Assembly (NCBI GenBank): GCA_951406725.2
Contig: OX597817.1
Coordinates: 92,504,001-92,568,000 of the forward strand
Source of the DNA: Octopus vulgaris
Taxonomy: Eukaryota
DNA length: 64,000 nt
Reading direction: 5' to 3'
Positions 2,636-64,000 of this stretch are shown one piece after another; position 1 is the first letter of the stretch, and every line of letters starts with the position of its first letter. The translations under genes were made by a program, and so were the position numbers. Under the pieces are notes generated by a model. It did not search any database. It was not told where the DNA came from and saw only the letters and a program-made list of their open reading frames with translations.

Positions 2636-3092
2636 TTTGTTGTTCATGATTTTTTATGTGAAATTGTGTGTTGAAACAGATATTGATGTATTTCTGAATG
2701 GTCATTTTGCCAGTTTAGCCAATAAAAACACACGCACTATATATTTGGTGTTACTTTGCTTCAGCATTATTTATTTTTTACATTAATCTTAATCTTATTT
2801 CGGCCAGAGTTCTTTCGTCACACTCCTGTGACCGCATCAGTGGTCCTTTGCTTTCTTCTTTCTTATTTGTGTCTCTCCTTACTAACCATCAGCCATTTTG
2901 TATTTCTATTGTATGTGTTTCCATTTGCGCATGCGTATATCTCTATGTGCATCTATGTTTAGTTAGTGTGTGTGGAGGGGATGCCTGTAATATTTGTATC
3001 TTTTGTTTATATACGTTCGTGTAATTTGTTTTTGTTTTTATTTATTCTTATTTTGTTCATGTGTTTACATCCACTTATTATTATTATTATTA

Positions 3093-3126
<34 letters not shown>

Positions 3127-4155
3127 TTTTTTTTTCTTCTTTCAAATTTGCTTTCATTTCTTGCCGAGTGTCTTCCCGACTCCTAGGGCAAAGAAACTCA
3201 TAGTATACATTGGTAGGCCATTAAACCAAACTCAATAGTTCGTTCATTTTTTTTTTTTTTTTTTTTTTTTTCTAAGTTAAATTAAAATACATGAGCAGCA
3301 ACAGTTCTCACATCGACAATGCTCTTCTCAATGCGTGTGATGTACCAGTTAAGACAATCTTTTGCACTTCTTGCAGAGATGGTAAGCCAGGGATCATTCT
3401 CATATAATTTTCGGTTCCCTTCTTGATCATTCCTAGTGCTCCTACGATCACTGGTATTGTAACCGCCTTGAGATGCCACATTTTCTCAATTTCAATGAGT
3501 AGGTCTTTATATTTTCTGAGCTTGTCAAACTCTTTCGCTGAGATATTATGATCACAGGGGATGCTCATGTCGATCAATAAGCAAACTTTATTGTTTTGGT
3601 CTTTCACAACAATATCTGGTTTATTGGCCTTGATGGTTCGGTCTGTATGTACTGGAAAGTCCCACAGAATGGTTACATTTTCTCCTTCAGTTACAGCCTC
3701 AGGGTGGTGATTATACCACTTGTCGGCAGTTTTGATATTGTAATGCCAACTTATTAGCCAGTGTAGATATTGGCCAACTCTGTCATGTCTTAATTTATAC
3801 TCCACTGGAGCTAAGACTTTACATCCAGAGATTAGGTGGTCCACTGTTTCAATCATGTCGTTGCAGAATCGGCATTTTGGGTCTGCTCCATTTTTCATCA
3901 CATTGGCCTGGTAGTTCCGGGTTAATAGGCTTTGATCTTGAGCAGCCAGGATGAAACCTTCGCTCTCTGCTTTTAGCCCTGAGCTCCGTAGCCTCTGATG
4001 GGTTTGCTTCTGGTCAACATCAGCTTGTTTGCTGCGGGTCACATATTTGCCGTGCAGAGGTTTCTCCTCCCACCTATCAGCCAATTGCTCGTGCGCTTTT
4101 TTCGTTGCCATTATTTTCACCTTCTTTGCAACAATAATTGCTGTACTTCCCTCGG

Positions 4156-4214
<59 letters not shown>

Positions 4215-5190
4215 CATCATTATTATTATTATCATTATTATTATTATTACATATGCTTGTATGTATGTATGTATAACAACAATACTAGTAGTAATAATAA
4301 TAATGAAAAAAAATTTTTTAATTAAAAAAATTAAAAATTTAAAAAAAAATGTATATAGTTATTTATTCCCATTTATTTATTTCTCTGTGTATTTTATTTT
4401 ATTATGTTTTCAGTTTTGTTTATACTGTAACCAGTTTATAGGGATCCTCTTCTGTCATATGTTGTGGTGTGTGCTAGTGTTCCATTCCAGTTTCCTATTC
4501 AGGCTAGGTTTATCTTCTATTATGTGTGTAGCTTCCGTAATTTGTCTAATTGTTGCGTCTGTTCTATGTGTGGACAAGATTTTAACTTCTATGTTGTTGA
4601 TTGATCCCCCGTGTTCCTGTTCGGCGTGTTGGTATAGAATCGATGAGCTCTTTCCTTCCTTAAGTTCTCTCCAATCTTCATTTACCTGCTCTCCTATGCT
4701 TTGTGCCGTTTCCTCTATGTATGTTGTTGTCTTGTTACTGCATTGTCCCTCTATACATCTTATACTATAGACTACATTTCTGGCTTTACAGTTTGTTTGT
4801 GGGCTAAATCTACACACAGTACAGTACCTATCCGTACAGGGGGTTCTACTAAAAGGGTAAGTTCTACCGATTATGGATTTAATAGGGTTGCTTGGCTTTT
4901 CAACAACCTTAATCCTTAGCTTAAGTTTGTCTAGGGCCCTTCTAAAGCGGTATGCCAGTTCACCTCTAGGGGTGGTGCCAACGAACATGACACTCTGGTA
5001 TTTGTGGCTATCATACCAAGAGTTGGCCTTCCCTATTTTCTTCGTTGTCCTTTCCATAGTGTTCCACAACATATGACAGAAGAGGATCCCCATAAATTGG
5101 TTACAATATAAACAAAACTGAAAACATAATAAAATAAAATACACGGATAAATAAACAAATGGAAGTAAATAACTATATACATTTTAAAAA
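2636..5190 (-). mobile_element. 5'-truncated Penelope-like element (GIY-YIG end, long 3' repeat, inverted 5' copy), interrupted by a LINE
   Basis: ORF 4455-5144 has CxxxxCxxC, NVVYSIRC...TYIEET and E...I......LN (GIY-YIG). 5064-5186 is an inverted copy of 4346-4468. HHR-like motif at 2801-2846. Confidence 0.82.
3126..4158 (-). mobile_element. Dong/R4-like RLE non-LTR retrotransposon, 3' fragment, in (TAA)n
   Basis: ORF 3308-4120 has a CCHC knuckle (CRFC...HLISGC), RHD, PDIVV.D and KYKDL restriction-like endonuclease motifs. (TTA)n on both sides. Confidence 0.9.
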
Positions 5191-17804: not shown

Positions 17805-20445
17805 TATATAAACGGCAGTTTGTCTGTGTGTGTTTCTGTGTGTCTGTTTGGTTGTACCCTCACTCTGACCACGGCTTTCAACCGATTCTGATGGAACTTG
17901 ACACACACATAGCCCAATGTCATAATTCAAAACTAACGCAGCGAAAATTTTGAAAAGTTCACCCAATTCTGAAAAAAATTAATAAATTCGACATGGGGTC
18001 GAGAATCAGAAACACAAACCACAGACTGTCTAGGGGACGCAACTCGGCCTTTTTAACTCTGACCTACCAATCCACTTCAGGCGTTCTCAGTTTCCTGTTA
18101 AACTCTGCTTCGCAATGTTCATCAATAAATCCCAAGGCCAAACGCTACAAGTCGCTGGGTTACAGTTGGGCGAACAGTGCTTCGCCCACGGTCAACTCTA
18201 CGTGGGCTGTTCACGCGTTGGGAGGCGCAATGATGTTTTCATGTTTTCGCCCAAACGGACAGCTAGGAACATCGTATACACAGAAGTATTCGAGTGAAGA
18301 GAAGACATTGCAACCTACAAAATCGATAAACTCGGCATGGGGTTGAGAATCTAAGCTTTTTATATGCAACACATTATCTATGGTAGTTTTCGCAACTTGC
18401 AATCGATTTTCACAAAACTCATGGGGAAGCTTAATGTCACCCTAAGAAACTCAATTCTGACGTTAGTTTTCCATGCAATACCTTACCATCAGAAACAATC
18501 GATAAAATCATGCCATTTTGGGAAATCGCGTTCAAATTCAAGATGACATATTTTTGACAATATCTTTCACAAATTGGCAGGAATTTTTTTTTTCCACAGT
18601 GAGCATCATGTCTGCTCCAAGGAGCTATATAGCCCTTTTTATTCCAATAGGATACATTATTGGAAAAAATCGGTTAATTAAATCTTTCACAAATTGGCAG
18701 GAATTTTTTTTTTTTCACAGTGAGCATCATGTCTGCTCCAAGGAGCTATATAGCCCTTTTTATTCCAATAGGATACATTATTGGAAAAAATCGGTTAATT
18801 AAATCATATGTGGCACACATAGCAAACCAATTTGTGTATTAAACACAAACCAGACTATCTAGGGGACGCAACTGGACCTTTTTAGCTATCGATAATTCGA
18901 TCCAACCAATTCCTACCAGGAAGAAATTACATTCGAGACTTCACCCCCAACACTGCCACTTCTACTAATAGCTGCTGCAGCCGCAAGTTATTCGAATACT
19001 TTTTTTGTTTACACTTTCTTTATAACTACCACCCCAAACGTCAGTAAAGCACCCTCTGCCATCGTGGCGTCCCACTGGGAGTCATCCTCTAGAAGGCCAA
19101 GTCTCATACATGCTTCCCTGAAGGTGTCGCACAGAACCCCATTGACGGTACGTATATTGCCGAAACCTGTTGGACCAGTGACCTCATGTAGAAGGAGACG
19201 GAGGTAGAAGCATTCTTGCTGGTTTGGCGGGATGTTGTAAACTCGACCCAGGCAGGAGTCAAACTTGACGCCTGGGAAGCCTTCGACGTTTTTGTCGGAT
19301 TTCCGTCGAACCCAGGTGTTTTTAGACCACACGAAGTACGATGGGACCTGTGGGTACAAAAGCGTTCGAGCGAAGTCATCACGTTGGCATAATTTGAAGA
19401 AACCAGTTAACGTTGTGTCTTTAGGGCTGGTGGCTATCTGCACAGCACTTTGCTCTGTGAAGTAAATCCGCTGTCCATTTTCCAAGTGTACAGCAAGCTG
19501 CACCACAGCCGGGTGTCTCTGATGGAGCGGGAAGCTGTAAATGCGCCAAATGCTTCGTTGCTGCTGAGGTACCGGCCAGCCAAGTAGTTGGACACTTCGT
19601 CGCGACTGGTGGTCCTCTGGATGCTGAACATGGCAGCATCGCTGCCTTTGTTGATATATTTGCAGACATATTGTATTGACCTGATGGAGCTACAAAACAA
19701 TTTACGCGACCTAAAATGGCTGGCAGGCAGAGCTATTCTCGCACCCAAAAATACAACCGTCAACTCCATCAATATCCAGCTACTTGAAGCTATTCCTGGT
19801 GATGTCCACGTCTACAAATCTATAGACAGGACAGCAGACCCTGCCCAGCTTGCCGATTATCCTGTTGAATTCCTGAATTCACTTGAACCACCAGGCCTGC
19901 CGCCACACATCCTGAAGTTAAAAGTCGGTGCATCCATTATGCTCATCAGGAATTTGATTCCACCTAAACAGTGCAACGGCACACGTTTGGTTGTGAAACA
20001 TTTGGCACCACATTTAATAACGGCCACAATACTTACCGGTTGAGGGAAGGGAGAGGACGTCTTCATTCCACGGATGCACCTTCAACCGTCGGGCGCTGAT
20101 CTACCAATCCACTTCAGGCGTTCTCAGTTTCCTGTTAAACTCTGCTTCGCAATGTTCATCAATAAATCCCAAGGCCAAACGCTACAAGTCGCTGGGTTAC
20201 ATTTGGGCGAACAGTGCTTCGCCCACGGTCAACTCTACGTGGGCTGTTCACGCATTGGGAGGCGCAATGATGTTTTCAGGTTTTCGCCCCAACGGACAGC
20301 TAGGAACATCATATATACAGAAGTATTCAAGACATTGCAACGTCCACATGCACCTTCGTTCCCTGGAGGGAAAGGACTACATTGGGATTAGTCATTGCCT
20401 ACTAGGGGCTCTTACATACCCGGGCAACGCCGGGCTATGCTGCTA

Positions 20446-30180: not shown

Positions 30181-30759
30181 GTAAGACAATTTTTTTTTCA
30201 TGTTTGTTGCACACACGCATCTTTACTAGTACATACGCAGTGAAGCTATACATTAGCGTCGTATTTATTACGTTTGTTATTTTCCAGTAAATATTGGTGC
30301 TTCGTTGTGCCATTTATTTACTTTTATATGTATAATTTTACCCTCACGGGATATCCTTTACTGGAAAGCAATACTCTCGTATTGCATTACTATTTTCATT
30401 TAACTTCTTCACTGTTCTCGTTCTGTTAACGTTTTGGTGTTCAGACGAGTGTACTGGCATAGATGTGGCAACATTTGAAATGTTGTCGAGGTATATGCAG
30501 CTGATGAAGACAAATCAAATATACGTTGGCAAACGTATTTCGAAGAGTCTGAAACCGGTACTGCATTATCCGTTTCTAGGTTTTTCATTTTTCAGATGTT
30601 CTTCCTAGAGGTAAGACAATTTTTTTTTCATGTTTGTTGCACACACGCATCTTTACTAGTACATACGCAGTGAAGCTATACATTAGCGTCGTATTTATTA
30701 AGTTCGCTATTTACCAGTAAATATCGGTGCTTCGTTGTGCCATTTATTTACTTTTATAT
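30181..30759 (+). mobile_element. Retrozyme/pLTR-like partial tandem repeat (430-bp unit) with intact HHR
   Basis: 30181-30328 is directly repeated at 30611-30758. No ORF. HHR at 30495-30566. Confidence 0.75.
30495..30566 (+). ncRNA. Type I hammerhead ribozyme, canonical core
   Basis: Stem I ATGCAG/CTGCAT, CTGATGA (30501), stem II AGAC/GTCT enclosing hairpin ATACGTT/AACGTAT, GAAAC-CG-GTA. Predicted cleavage after 30560. Confidence 0.88.
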
Positions 30760-30764
30760 ATATC

Positions 30765-31420
30765 ATCATCATCATCATCGTTTAACGTCCGTTTTCCGCG
30801 CTAGCACAGGTTGGACGGTTCGACCGAGGTCTGGGAAGCCAGGGGCTGCACCAGGCTCCGGTCTGATCTGGCAGTGTTTCTACAGCTGGATGCCCTTCCT
30901 AATGCCAACCACTCCGCGAGTGTAGTGGGTGCTTTTTACGTGCCACCTGCACAGGTGCCAGGGGGGTCTGGCATCAGCCACGATCGGTTGGTGCTTTTAA
31001 CGTGCCACCAGCACGGAAGCCAGCCAAGGCGGCGCTGGCATCGGCCACGTTCGGATGGTGCTTTTTATGTACCACCAGCACAGAAGCCAGTCGAGGCATT
31101 GCTGGCATTGGCTACGTTCAGATGGTGCTTTTTATGTGCCACCGGCACAGAAGCCAGACGAGGAGGCGCTGGCAACGGCCACGTTCGGATGGTGCTTTTT
31201 ATGTGCCACCAGCATTGGTATCACAACTATTTCCATTGATATTTGTTTCAATGTTCATGTACATGCACTTGACTCAATAGGTCTCCTCAAGCACAGCGAG
31301 ATGTTCTGGGATCCAAGGTACTTTGAATGGGCAGGGGCTATGCGGAACTGGTGCCAGAAGCATCCCGGGTCTTTGCAGTCACAGCACATCTCCAGAGATA
31401 TCGGTCCTTCGCCATTGCTT
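30765..31420 (-). mobile_element. RTE-type 3' tail element with about 75-bp internal tandem repeats
   Basis: (CAT)n plus RTE tail. Roughly four units of ggtgctttttatgtgccacc.gcacagaagccag...ggccacgttcggat at 30928-31215. Confidence 0.7.
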
Positions 31421-45083: not shown

Positions 45084-45780
45084 TATATATATTATATGGT
45101 TTTATTTGTTTCAGCTATATGATTGCAGCAATGCTGGAGCACTTACTTTAGTCGAAGAAATCAAACCCAAGACTTATTCTTTGTAAGCCTAGTACTTATT
45201 CTATCGGTTTCTTTTGCCGAGCCGCTAAGTTATGGGGATGTAAACACACCAACATTGGTTGTCAAGTGATGATGGGGGACAAACACAGACACACAAGCAC
45301 ACACACACATAAACATATACGACGGGCTTCTTTCAGTTTCCGTCAACCAAATCCACTCACAAAGCTTGTCCAAGGTGCCACGCAATGGGAGTGGACCCGG
45401 GACCATGTGGTTGGGAAGCAATCTTCTTACTACACAGCCATACATACGCATGTATACATATATATATGTGTGTGTGTGTATGTGTGTGTATGTATATATA
45501 TATATATATATATATACACAAACATACAATTCAAATAACAAATAAAATTAATGGACAACGAGAGGATGTGCACAAGGCATGTACTAGTGTGTTACTTGAT
45601 GAAAAAAGAGTTTGACATTTTGAGCATAGCTCTTTGTTGGAAAGGAAATAGTGAAAAAGAGTAAAGTAAAAAAAAAAGGAAAAGAACTCGCCAACAACAC
45701 GTGTGCGTAGATACATTGCTGAAGTATATATATGTATGTGTGTGTGCGTATGTATGTATGTATATATATATATATATAGG

Positions 45781-46064
45781 AGATGTACTTGCATAGCAAG
45801 TGATTTGATCTGAGATCGTGTGCTGAAACGAAAACAATTGCAGTGTGGAAGGTGTTTGTAAGCCATTTAAGAATTACACAAAAGCCTTTCGATTCACTTC
45901 AACATTTAATTTTAATTTGTCAAAATATTTTCGTCACTTTAAGACCGCGACCTGTTCTTAAAGCGACGAAAATATTTTGACAAATTAAACTTAAATGTTG
46001 AAGTGAATCGAATGACTTTTGTGTGATTCTTAAATGGCTTACAAACACCTTCCACACTGCAATT

Positions 46065-46068
<4 letters not shown>
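45781..46068. repeat. Fold-back copy of the variant-HHR repeat family
   Basis: Arms are about 45831-45943 and 45957-46068. Homologous to 62934-63163 and 47345-47472. Confidence 0.9.
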
Positions 46069-46134: not shown

Positions 46135-46428
46135 AATTAGAAAAAAACACCTTTTATCAATTCAAAATGAACAATTAAATTACACCATCTAGAAAATTAC
46201 ATTTAATAGAAATCTTAAAATTAAAATAACAATAAAATACCGATGATTAAGTAAATTGCAAAAAATAATAAAAACCAATTATATACGTTTTTATAATTTT
46301 TTTTGCAATTTACTTAATCATCGGTATTTTATTATTATTTTAATTTTACTATTTCTATTATATGTAATTTTCTAGATGGTGTAATCTAATTGTTCATTTT
46401 GAATTGATAAAAGGTGTTTTTTCTAATT
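46135..46428. repeat. AT-rich fold-back (about 140-bp arms) between (TA)n tracts
   Basis: 46135-46276 is the approximate reverse complement of 46287-46428. Confidence 0.9.
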
Positions 46429-47190: not shown

Positions 47191-47486
47191 AATCTATATT
47201 TTTGTTATTTTTCATTTGTCCTGCTCGCTTACGTTCATAGTTGTGCTAATTTTTCTTGAGAACAATTCTTAGTGGTTGAGACCATAGCGGATCTATTTTT
47301 AGCGTAAGAGCGTCCACATAGTGGATTCTCTCTTATATTTGTATATTTCGTCGCGGTCTTAAAGCGACGAAAATATTTTGAAGTGAATTGAACGGCTTTT
47401 GTGTGTTTCTTAAATGGCTTACAAACACCTTCCACGCTGCAATTGTTTTTGTTTCAGCATACGATCTGAGATATAATGGAGAAATC

Positions 47487-48069
47487 TTGATCAACAACAT
47501 TTGACTTCCATTGATTATTATTTTTTGATAGAAAACATTACTCCATCTAACAGCCGTTTCTGCTTCCAATGTCTTGCAGTGCTGACAAAAAAAAAAAGAA
47601 TCCAGAAAATAATATTCGTCATATTTTATAACACATCTGATCTGGAACATGGAGCTTCATCAGAGTGAAGAAAAGTAGATAAAAGAAAAGAAAAGAAGAG
47701 AAGCCTCGAGAGGAGTAATGAAGGCTTAATATATTTGAATCATACCATTTTGCAGTGTAACGCTTCAGGCCGTGGAGATTTTTCTTAACGGCCTGAAGCG
47801 TTACACTGCAAAATGGTATGATTCAAATATATTAAGCCTTTATTCCTCCTCCTGAGGCTCTTTTTTTCTTTTCTTTTATTGTATATATTCTTCTTCACGC
47901 TGATGAAGCTCCATGTTTCAGTTCAGTGTATTATAAAATATGACGAATATTATTCTCTGAATTTTCTTTGGCAACACTGCAGGACATTGGAAGCAGAAAC
48001 GGCTGTTAGATGGGATAAAGTTTTGTATTAAAAAATAATAATCGATGGTAGTCAATTGTTGTAGATCAA
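47487..48069. repeat. Large fold-back (about 285-bp arms), each arm with a long-stem-II HHR-like motif
   Basis: 47487-47773 pairs with 47788-48069. CTGATGA-AGCT...AAGC-A-GAAAC-GGCT-GTT lies at 47900-48007 (+) and in mirror form at about 47548-47662 (-). Confidence 0.85.
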
Positions 48070-53162: not shown

Positions 53163-53390
53163 TGTAATATAATATGTGACAATTATTCAGTTGTCATAAT
53201 AAAAGTCCAAGTTTCAGATGTCAGGGCAGAAATTTGCTCCGGCATCTCGTCAGTTATTAAGACAATAAAAAAATGGGCATTTTTGTATTGTCTTAATAAC
53301 TGACGAGATGCCGGAGCAAATTTCTGCCCTGACATCTAAAACTTGGACTTTTATTATGACAACTGAATAATTGTCACATATTATATTACA
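53163..53390. repeat. Near-perfect 228-bp palindrome with HHR-like arms
   Basis: The arms are reverse complements with very few mismatches. Each carries CTGACGA-GATG...CATC-T-(G/A)AAAC. Confidence 0.92.
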
Positions 53391-61828: not shown

Positions 61829-62933
61829 GAAACAAAGCTCAGATTTGGTCTAATTTGTGATAGGATTTATGTGGGTATTGGATTATGACCTGTAACCTTT
61901 GGTATCCATATGTTTTAAGCAGTCTTTCAAGTGCTAAGGACCCTTCTGATAATCCTTGCTGTACCTAAGAAGCAAACTTTCTACAGAAGCTCTACCAGGC
62001 ATTCTATTTCAATCGCTTTCAGCCATTTGTCTATATCTTGGCTTACTGTTTCCAATGCACTTATTATTATGGGCATGACCTTTACTGTTCTCATGCTCCA
62101 AATTCTTCCTTTTTTAAATTTTAAAGGATTATATTTTCTGTTTTTCTTCCTCTTTCTTTACAATCTTGGAATTAAACAGGTATGATGGGTCAATAAGCAA
62201 CTTCGCTTTTCCTTATCTATGATCATAATATCTGGTCTATTGTTTTCTAACTTCTTGTCCATTTGAAGAGGTAAGTCCCACAACATTTTACATTTTTCTG
62301 ACTCTAGTACTCTTTTAACTCGATGATTGTATCATGTGTTTCCAGCTTCAAATTCCCATTTCTGGCCCAGTTTCCAATGTAAAACTTTTACAACCTGGTC
62401 ATACCTCCATTTCTTATATTCTTCCTGTGTTAACTTGGGGCATTCTGCTGCAGTGTGTGCCAGTCTCATTTCAAGTTCCACCAGCTCTACATTTTTCTGA
62501 CACATTCTCTATATATTTTTTATCAAGTTGTTTGTTTTTATCACTTGATCTTGGGCTGCTACAATTAGGGTCCCTGTTTCTTTTTTAATTGCCCCTTTTT
62601 TAATCAAGTCCTAGATTTTGTCCCACCTGTGTCTTGAGTGGCTCTCCTAAACTGGCCATGCAGAGATTTCTCTTCAATCTGTCTGATGTGCTCTCTTTGT
62701 ATTTCATTCTTGTCCCTTTCTCCTATTATGAGCTTCATCGCCTGTTCTTTTTTAATTGTCATTAGTAGTTTTTCTGTGTTGCTCTGTAAATGCTCTACTA
62801 GACTTTTTTTTCCATTTGTACACATTCTTCTACTACTGTTAAGCCTCAAGTACAGCCAGTTGATATCAGCTTTCAGATGGTGGATTCCATACATCGTCAA
62901 CTTTCTAGTTTCTCTGTCAAGTTTCTTTATTTC

Positions 62934-63163
62934 GAAGATGTACTTGCATAGCAAGTGACTTGATCTGAGATCGTGTGCCGGAACGAAACCAATTGCAGCA
63001 TGAAAGGTGTTTATAAGCCATTTAAGAAACACACAAAACCGTTAGATTCACTTCAACATTTAAATTTAATTTGTCAAAATATTTTCGTCGCTTTCAGACC
63101 ACGACCTGTTCACTGACAAAACTTCGTGCTGCACCCTAACCCTAACCTTCCACACTGCAGTTG
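62934..63163 (-). mobile_element. Short non-coding insertion carrying a variant HHR, nested in the Dong-like LINE
   Basis: Flanked by the direct repeat GTTTCTTTATTTC (62921-62933, 63164-63176). Homologous to 45781-45957. Has a short inverted terminal piece and (CCCTAA)2. Confidence 0.8.
63070..63120 (-). ncRNA. Hammerhead-like motif with G3-C8 swapped core
   Basis: Minus strand: TTTGTCA-GTGAACA-G-GTCGT-ggtctgaaa-GCGAC-GAA-AATATT-T-TGACAAA. Confidence 0.65.
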
Positions 63164-64000
63164 GTTTCTTTATTTCACTTCTGGTCTATTATTCCAACTC
63201 CATATTTGATTGGGGGTGCTGCTCTTGAATTTGTTGCTTCAATAAGATTTTTGGAATTCAACTTTGACTGCAATAATTTTCTGACTCTCCTTGTCTACTC
63301 TCTAAATTTGTTTAATTTCTTCATTTTTTATCTCATCTGCTTCCAGTATTCCCAAGTACTTATACCACTGTCTTTTCTCAAATGCTCTCATTATTTTTCC
63401 GATTGGCACTTCAATTCCTTGCTTCTTTCAAATCTTCCTCATTTCATTTTCAATATAGCACACTTTTCTAATTCAAATTCCAAACCTGCATCATTTGAGA
63501 AAATGCAGATAGTATGTACAAGAATTTCAAGCTGTTCTTCATTTTTCAAATAAACCTTTATATCATCCATAGAAAGGAAATGAGTTATCTGACCATTCCT
63601 TTTTCCCAAATCATAAGCAATTTTAACCTTTTGTAGTATCATAGTGAATGGTGTCATGGCCAATACGAATAGTAAAGGAGATAACCTATCACCTTGGAAT
63701 ATTCCACATATGATGTTCACTTTTCCAAGTGTTTGCTTTCCTCCAATAGATTTAGTTTTCCAATGTTTCATACTTTCATTAAGCATTTTCTCCATGTATT
63801 TTGCTATTCCAAACATGCCCATAGTTTAACACATCCAAATGTGTGGTACCATGTCATATACTCTTTTCTAATCTAGCCATGCTACATCCTGTCCCATCAA
63901 TCTGCATCTACACTTTCTAATTGTCATTTTATTAACTAATAAGTGATCTTTTTTTGCCCTACTTTGCTTCCTGCATCTTTTCTGTTCTTCTGGAAGTAGG

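Follow-up and report, generated by a model that had tools for sequence, protein, structure and literature searches.

Can the tertiary base pair between positions 3 and 8 of the hammerhead core, C3-G8 in the consensus, exist in nature with its two letters exchanged? This question is raised by a 51 nt motif in a 64,000 nt stretch of Octopus vulgaris DNA (assembly GCA_951406725.2, contig OX597817.1, forward-strand positions 92,504,001 to 92,568,000; this whole stretch is called the window here). The motif occupies 63120-63070 on the minus strand and lies in a terminal repeat of a Penelope-like retrotransposon. An earlier note on this DNA had described stems I and II, GAA, the palindrome AATATT, T17 and the core GTGAACA at this place, and all of these are seen in the sequence. 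The linker between stems I and II, given there as the 7 nt GTGAACA, is in fact 8 nt long, an extra G at 63106 having been overlooked. The motif is composed as follows:

63114..63120, minus strand: 5' strand of stem I, seen in the sequence and paired in the predicted fold
63107..63113, minus strand: 5' core strand G3 U4 G5 A6 A7 C8 A9, that is GTGAACA (G3 at 63113, C8 at 63108); the majority state of the family, aligned without gaps to C3..G8 of a sister family
63106, minus strand: extra unpaired G between A9 and G10.1, seen in the sequence
63087..63105, minus strand: stem II of 5 bp (63105-63101 with 63091-63087), closed by G10.1-C11.1, with a 9 nt loop; sequence and predicted fold
63077..63086, minus strand: G12 A13 A14 (GAA, 63086-63084), palindromic stem III AATATT (63083-63078) and U17 (63077), seen in the sequence
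Between 63077 and 63076, minus strand: predicted cut, placed by hammerhead numbering
63070..63076, minus strand: 3' strand of stem I, 7 bp with 63120-63114; sequence and predicted fold

Pairing of C3 with G8 is confined to the active conformation of the hammerhead (PMC3884650; this and the other papers cited here are used as far as their accessible parts go). In a full pairwise mutational scan, the swap from C-G to G-C was the only rescuing double mutant in the 3-8 region (PMC9901934), and in the hammerhead of a lizard Penelope element single mutants at 3 or 8 were dead while the double mutant was partly active (PMC11167929). The earlier note had likewise named the tertiary pair and the partial rescue by double mutants as established.

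Every feature of a minimal type I hammerhead is present at 63120-63070, except that position 3 is G and position 8 is C. U4 G5 A6, A9, G12 A13 A14, A15.1-U16.1 and H17 agree with the consensus, and stems I and II enclose the core with G10.1-C11.1 (predicted fold, with two-sided changes in both stems). The C3 and G8 of the canonical consensus are found neither in the window copy nor in the majority of its family, and because of this we class the motif as a hammerhead variant and not as a canonical member. Watson-Crick complementarity between the two positions is kept, as G-C in this family and C-G in the sister family, and we infer a physical G3-C8 pair in the folded core. A CUGANGA-based search would miss the motif, just as the earlier note had warned. 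Stem II of the window copy has one C-to-T change that results in a U-G wobble. As a monomer, stem III has only 2 bp with a 2 nt loop, while a 6 bp palindromic duplex is possible in a dimer. The UUU cleavage triplet is already published (Crassostrea gigas row in Fig. S3 of PMC4209133).

A descriptor of the minimal type I hammerhead that allows any Watson-Crick pair at 3-8 has exactly one match in the window, namely 63120-63070. The same descriptor gave no match in 20,000 dinucleotide shuffles of the 206 nt element or in 30 shuffles of the window. Structure prediction recovers stems I and II, with z = -2.16 for the 51 nt (3 of 200 shuffles were as good) and -0.35 when flanks are included. No Rfam hammerhead model matched at the site with E up to 10; this says little, because a minimal motif with a canonical core elsewhere in the genome (L010) was missed as well.

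Is the exchange a feature of the family or of one copy? Patterns were counted as exact matches in the 2.8-Gb genome (G000), so that all counts are lower bounds on copies. Among matches with G3, position 8 was C in 2,684, G in 131, T in 63 and A in 28. C3 with the same remainder was found 19 times, always with C8, and about half of these were small deletions or junctions. C3-G8 did not occur in this family, and a looser pattern (C or U at 3, purine at 8) resulted in 5 matches, all with U3. Contigs from all four of four sequencing runs, representing four organisms, had no change at 63104-63113 that reached 3% of depth, and a common A-to-G variant at 63074 (15-41% of contig depth in all four runs) keeps a U-G pair. 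These counts and depths demonstrate that G3-C8 is the inherited state of the family, not a quirk of one copy. The claim that the family carries the swap as its majority state is supported. Two further sites in the window, 45918-45985 and 47349-47379, had been listed as additional copies. The features described there are present, and both sites turned out to be inversion junctions of 5'-truncated copies. Neither covers position 3, and so they do not confirm the swap. Within the family no covariation was seen, the variation being mostly at CpG sites and in loop II; in neutrally decaying copies none would be expected anyway. Protein-coding constraint was considered as a cause of G3-C8 and rejected: old copies have a frame of 22 codons across the motif, of which only 7 codons are left in the young subfamily.

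The exchange becomes visible in comparison to a sister family, which makes up 19 of a set of 30 loci whose other 11 belong to the young subfamily described below, and has 55% protein identity over 814 amino acids to the G3-C8 family. Its motif served as comparator:

2795..2845, minus strand: motif of the sister family, with C3-G8 and C9; it shares the extra G

Three sister-family copies lie in the window, at 2840 (minus), 21100 (minus) and 21617 (plus). In 16 of the 19 sister-family loci, the repeat behind the open reading frame (ORF) contains a C3-G8 motif that shares the extra G and the first part of stem II. Its pattern has 3,958 matches in the genome, and the first 100 listed have C3 in 97 and G8 in 100. 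Some sister-family copies (L211, L212) were recently mobile and have intact frames of 1,310 amino acids, and L212 has a direct repeat-ORF-repeat layout.

MAFFT, run without structural information, placed the cores of the two families in register and without gaps. Of 12 named pairs, four differ in both partners when the families are compared: the 3-8 pair and one pair in each of the three stems. Sliding the partners by 1-3 columns left 0-1 such pairs, and one pair of stem I does not form in the sister family. The number of paired cells and the covariation score exceeded those of all 500 letter shuffles. The naive chance that changes fall in whole complementary pairs is about 1e-5 over 11 pairs, which were chosen by the analyst. 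The alignment has 8 rows (5 + 3 relatives), which amount to a single evolutionary contrast. A metagenome scan outside G000 for a third family gave 28 pattern matches, none of them confirmed. Covariation at 3-8, which the earlier note had proposed to look for, hence appears against the sister family, and the exchange between the families is likely compensatory, judged from the aligned sequences. The reading of the motif as a covaried hammerhead is supported at this level, with the term ribozyme standing for a putative activity.

Position 8 is not a quiet site. Changes at C8 led to G in 59% of cases (131 of 222), compared to 25% (14 of 57) at one C in stem I used as control (Fisher p 3e-6, and 1e-4 without a cluster of similar copies on C16; a single control site is a thin basis). 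C8-to-G is also commoner than C8-to-T, unlike at the control site. Eight loci have an inverted partner that covers position 8, and in 5 of them the partner of a G3-G8 copy keeps C, which means that the C8-to-G change often arose during or after insertion. G3-G8 as ancestral intermediate was rejected, considering that it occurs in all loop-II subfamilies and that the inverted partners keep C as described. The G3-G8 state looks derived.

The element that carries the motif is represented in the window by the following features, given together with the site of insertion:

62934..63133, minus strand: terminal-repeat copy (pLTR) of about 200 nt with the motif, truncated on its 5' side and 89% identical to the 3' terminus of L208, a copy that has an ORF
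62934..63021, minus strand: codons with which the ORF probably opens, 56 nt downstream of the predicted cut; the translation resembles the N-terminus of the sister-family ORF by eye
63146..63163, plus strand: 18 nt inverted piece of the same terminal repeat at the 5' junction
63134..63145, minus strand: two telomere-like hexamers (12 nt filler) between inverted piece and direct copy, seen in 1 of 92 copies examined
63164..63176, minus strand: upstream copy of the 13 bp target-site duplication, identical to 62921-62933
62921..62933, minus strand: downstream copy of the 13 bp target-site duplication
63442..63825, minus strand: reverse-transcriptase fragment of an unrelated, decayed retrotransposon without long terminal repeats (non-LTR), the host of the insertion (Pfam RVT_1, E 5e-12)
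45773..46068, no single strand: inverted pair of truncated repeat copies; the minus copy (45957-45773) starts at G5, the plus copy (45958-46068) in loop II
47350..47472, plus strand: truncated repeat copy starting in stem II

The decayed non-LTR retrotransposon spans about 61850-64000 of the window on the minus strand, with frame fragments on both sides of the terminal-repeat insertion. Its C-terminal motifs presumably place it near the R4/Dong type.

Other copies of the terminal repeat also have inverted 5'-truncated neighbours and frequent (TA)n flanks. Their 3' ends cluster at 142-148 and at 198-206, approximately 60 nt apart, so that the optional tail known from such terminal repeats is present too. 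Longer copies run upstream through a splice-acceptor-like motif and then a microsatellite-rich stretch to a GIY-YIG region. In 16 of 30 loci selected for GIY-YIG, the repeat follows on the same strand no more than 1.5 kb downstream (one of these 16 is the query locus and one lacks the core). The motif is thus placed in the terminal repeat of a Penelope-like element. No full-length copy of the G3-C8 family was seen. In a young subfamily, whose long frames are free of stop codons, all 11 loci retain the core and the stems, with a different and shorter loop II. The subfamily's frame of 1,025 amino acids matches Pfam GIY-YIG above the cut-off (E 1.8e-5, residues 915-1005). The reverse-transcriptase region of this frame had no Pfam RVT_1 match, and a PDB search of the ORF gave 0 hits; reverse transcriptase was assigned by visual inspection of motifs and by the label of the best named homologue, an Octopus vulgaris 'reverse-transcriptase-domain protein' with 58% identity. 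Both families have a four-cysteine motif before the GIY-YIG strand. From these sequence features the host is a GIY-YIG-bearing Penelope-like retrotransposon that includes the young subfamily, and the Neptune type fits by domain order and cysteine linker.

Likewise, the elements of the Neptune clade (Craig et al. 2021, PMC8557442) have a cysteine-rich linker before a C-terminal GIY-YIG, inverted 5'-truncated neighbours, an optional 3' tail and frequent (TA)n flanks. Their tail is 30-40 nt long compared to about 60 nt here, and we assign the clade by domain order and motifs. The minimal type I hammerheads of Penelope elements (Cervera and De la Pena 2014, PMC4209133) share with our motif the place in the terminal repeat, the topology, G10.1-C11.1, an extra nucleotide between 9 and 10.1, a short palindromic stem III (15.2-16.2 and loop 3) and a U17 that is common among them. 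The extra nucleotide is a conserved trait of Penelope hammerheads; it is G in the Nasonia row, yet the consensus in PMC4209133 excludes G. Unlike here, the rows covered of the 56-motif alignment in that paper have C3-G8 or U3-A8 and no G3-C8. Next to stem I of the Penelope hammerhead of Drosophila virilis an intron has its 3' end (PMC4209133), and in our element a branch-point-like/AG motif similarly stands 14 nt before stem I; the core of the Drosophila virilis hammerhead is canonical, unlike the G3-C8 core here.

The natural U3-A8 hammerheads (Perreault et al. 2011, PMC3088659; Cercyon elements of Schistosoma, PMC4209133) also have a two-sided change at 3-8. This requires two transitions and keeps a purine at position 8, in contrast to the two transversions and the pyrimidine at 8 of G3-C8. 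Engineered C3G/G8C double mutants (PMC11167929, PMC9901934, PMC8495972) have the same letters as our motif, and in them the singles are dead and the double is partly rescued. These are laboratory-made, whereas G3-C8 is here the natural majority of a high-copy family and is combined with an extra G and UUU. In the literature searched, U3-A8 (PMC3088659, PMC4209133) is the only natural 3-8 swap we found reported. Natural G3-C8 was not found in the literature searched, which contained only engineered mutants; it is absent from the accessible parts of PMC6765202, PMC6155905, PMC11014351, PMC8495972 and bioRxiv 10.64898/2026.07.22.740005. Coverage was incomplete, and an earlier report or a supplement could contain the variant. 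Within this literature, G3-C8 is likely the natural version of a swap known from laboratory mutants.

Does the motif cleave? Of 59 matches that lack the T before the 3' strand of stem I, 30 were examined. In about 11 of these, junctions lie at the predicted cut or no more than 3 nt from it; 2 are ambiguous due to stem I complementarity, 2 are deletions and 15 are point changes. Elsewhere, 5' ends had a background of 0.34 per position among 226 fragments, 1 of which began at the cut.

We consider it rather probable that the motif is a hammerhead that takes up the usual fold and cuts slowly after U17 with the help of a partner or a protein, so that the element RNA is trimmed 56 nt before the likely start codon. 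This view builds on the sequence and its copy counts, on the link to a GIY-YIG ORF, on the alignment with the sister-family motif and on the paired changes. G3 would pair with C8 in the folded core, which would leave the 2'-OH of position 8 in place, with G12, G5, A6, A9, A13 and A14 of the swapped core unchanged. The 2-bp stem III would be too short for a monomer, and two motifs might pair through the AAUAUU palindrome. Alternatively, the element protein may fold the motif, as in other Penelope elements. Slow cleavage after U17 would then take place only together with a second copy or the element protein. Probably not every insertion would need cleavage. Precedents come from minimal Penelope hammerheads, which cut weakly and as dimers (PMC4209133), and from the lizard Penelope-element hammerhead, which requires protein for cleavage and whose cleavage is not needed for insertion in vitro (PMC11167929).

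A bolder version sees here the first G3-C8 hammerhead that is both natural and active, fixed in a recently mobile lineage common to several related species and cutting in vivo, with insertions that begin at the scissile bond and with C8-to-G copies as escapers. We regard this as possible but doubtful. If true, evolution crossed a two-transversion valley of the hammerhead tertiary pair, and current descriptors fail to see an entire class of hammerheads in genomes.

Several observations weigh against cleavage by the motif. In the predicted fold G3 and U17 form a wobble that lengthens stem I, comparable to the inactive C3-G17 pairing that is discussed in PMC3884650, and this wobble could trap an inactive fold. 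A dimer modelled through stem III reaches -25.4 kcal/mol compared to 2 x -12.4 for two monomers, a gain of 0.6 kcal/mol, and dimer folds without constraint did not form stem III under the energy model. C11.1 might also be drawn into pairing with the extra G. De la Pena and Flores reportedly observed in 2001 that hammerhead activity is lower with an extra G. In 4 ORF-bearing loci of the G3-C8 family, inspected over 9 kb each, no direct tandem arrangement was seen; instead the neighbours are inverted, so that the motif would be buried in a long duplex. The 131 G3-G8 copies lack the 3-8 pair; 28 of the first 100 matches listed are alike and lie on C16, and the four of these that were examined have different 3' flanks, indicating that a broken 3-8 pair did not stop their spread. 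In the sister family position 9 is C in 92, A in 7 and T in 1 of the first 100 of the 3,958 matches, and by this A9C its core departs from the consensus too. The number of two-sided pairs between the families was reached by 273 of 500 letter shuffles. Finally, the pile-up of 5' ends at the predicted cut is suggested by counts that have no matched genome-wide control.

Some of these points would be expected if a hammerhead-derived fold were kept without cleavage, for protein binding or for translation control just upstream of the start codon. The spread of the G3-G8 sub-lineage on C16, the A9C of the sister family and the G3-U17 wobble agree with this, as does the lizard element, which inserts in vitro without cleavage and for which no reads ended at the cut (PMC11167929). 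Furthermore, at loci that were mostly selected for the core, 119 of the 226 fragments begin ahead of the motif, with the very first base of the repeat. However, all unpaired catalytic positions are identical between the two families, whose loop II, three stem pairs and 45% of residues are different. The 3-8 pair forms only in the active conformation (PMC3884650), and its retention points to selection on that conformation. A fold kept without cleavage hence seems unlikely to us, and it is the alternative we take most seriously.

Positions 3 and 8 might also have drifted independently in a master copy after loss of constraint, with complementarity by luck. There is one contrast only, between two families, and position 8 turns to G more often than the control C. 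Against this, neither old nor young subfamilies have lost any of the other core letters, and three further pairs changed on both sides, which makes drift improbable. A chance hairpin that resembles a hammerhead would account for the modest folding z-scores and for the missing Rfam match. It is highly improbable, as no shuffle of the element or the window reproduced the motif, the motif stands in the terminal repeat, where Penelope-like elements carry hammerheads (PMC4209133), and Rfam overlooked the canonical-core motif in L010 just as well; the alignment to the sister-family motif largely refutes it. Cleavage with help remains the reading that we favour over these alternatives.

The branch-point-like motif 14 nt before stem I is followed by a pyrimidine run and AG. 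It is seen in longer copies (L080-L109), has 188 exact matches and is kept in old and young subfamilies, and many short copies begin right there. It is possibly an intron end or a transcription start. No intron joint was seen in the contigs covering the repeat from four runs, three of which are only guessed to be RNA. At L009 (1490-1724), places with A-to-G/T-to-C differences numbered 15/16 in run X16, 13/13 in X18, 6/10 in X15 and 7/5 in a DNA run. The excess in X16 and X18 could reflect adenosine-to-inosine (A-to-I) editing of duplexes between inverted copies, the RNA status of these runs being a guess and the samples being different. A tandem array of C2H2 zinc fingers adjoins a young copy of the element at L213 (3-1370, minus strand, and 2709-4290).

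Other hammerhead-like sequences are present in the window and the loci studied. A type I motif with a canonical core lies at 30495-30566 (plus strand) and has a 6-bp stem I, a long irregular stem II and a palindromic stem III; it matches Rfam HH9 weakly (23.3 bits, E 0.25). A third repeat family (L010 near 2598 on the plus strand, L041, L053) has a fully canonical minimal hammerhead core, and two U3-A8 matches to the descriptor were found in L014 and L033. Long inverted repeats that are nearly perfect also occur in the window, together with tandem arrays (67 and 121 bp; 53163-53390, 46142-46422, 47735-47826, 30928-31214 and 18562-18805). Rfam microRNA matches in the window were below the gathering score and were discarded as microsatellite or hairpin artefacts.

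The 3-8 pair is a structural signature of the active hammerhead, and a natural high-copy G3-C8 family with a close C3-G8 sister provides phylogenetic support for this pair. One genome offers G3-C8, G3-G8 and C3-G8/C9 versions, and thereby a test set for whether the hammerheads of Penelope elements need to cut. Descriptors fixed on CUGANGA undercount such motifs, which bears on reports of Penelope-like clades that lack hammerheads.
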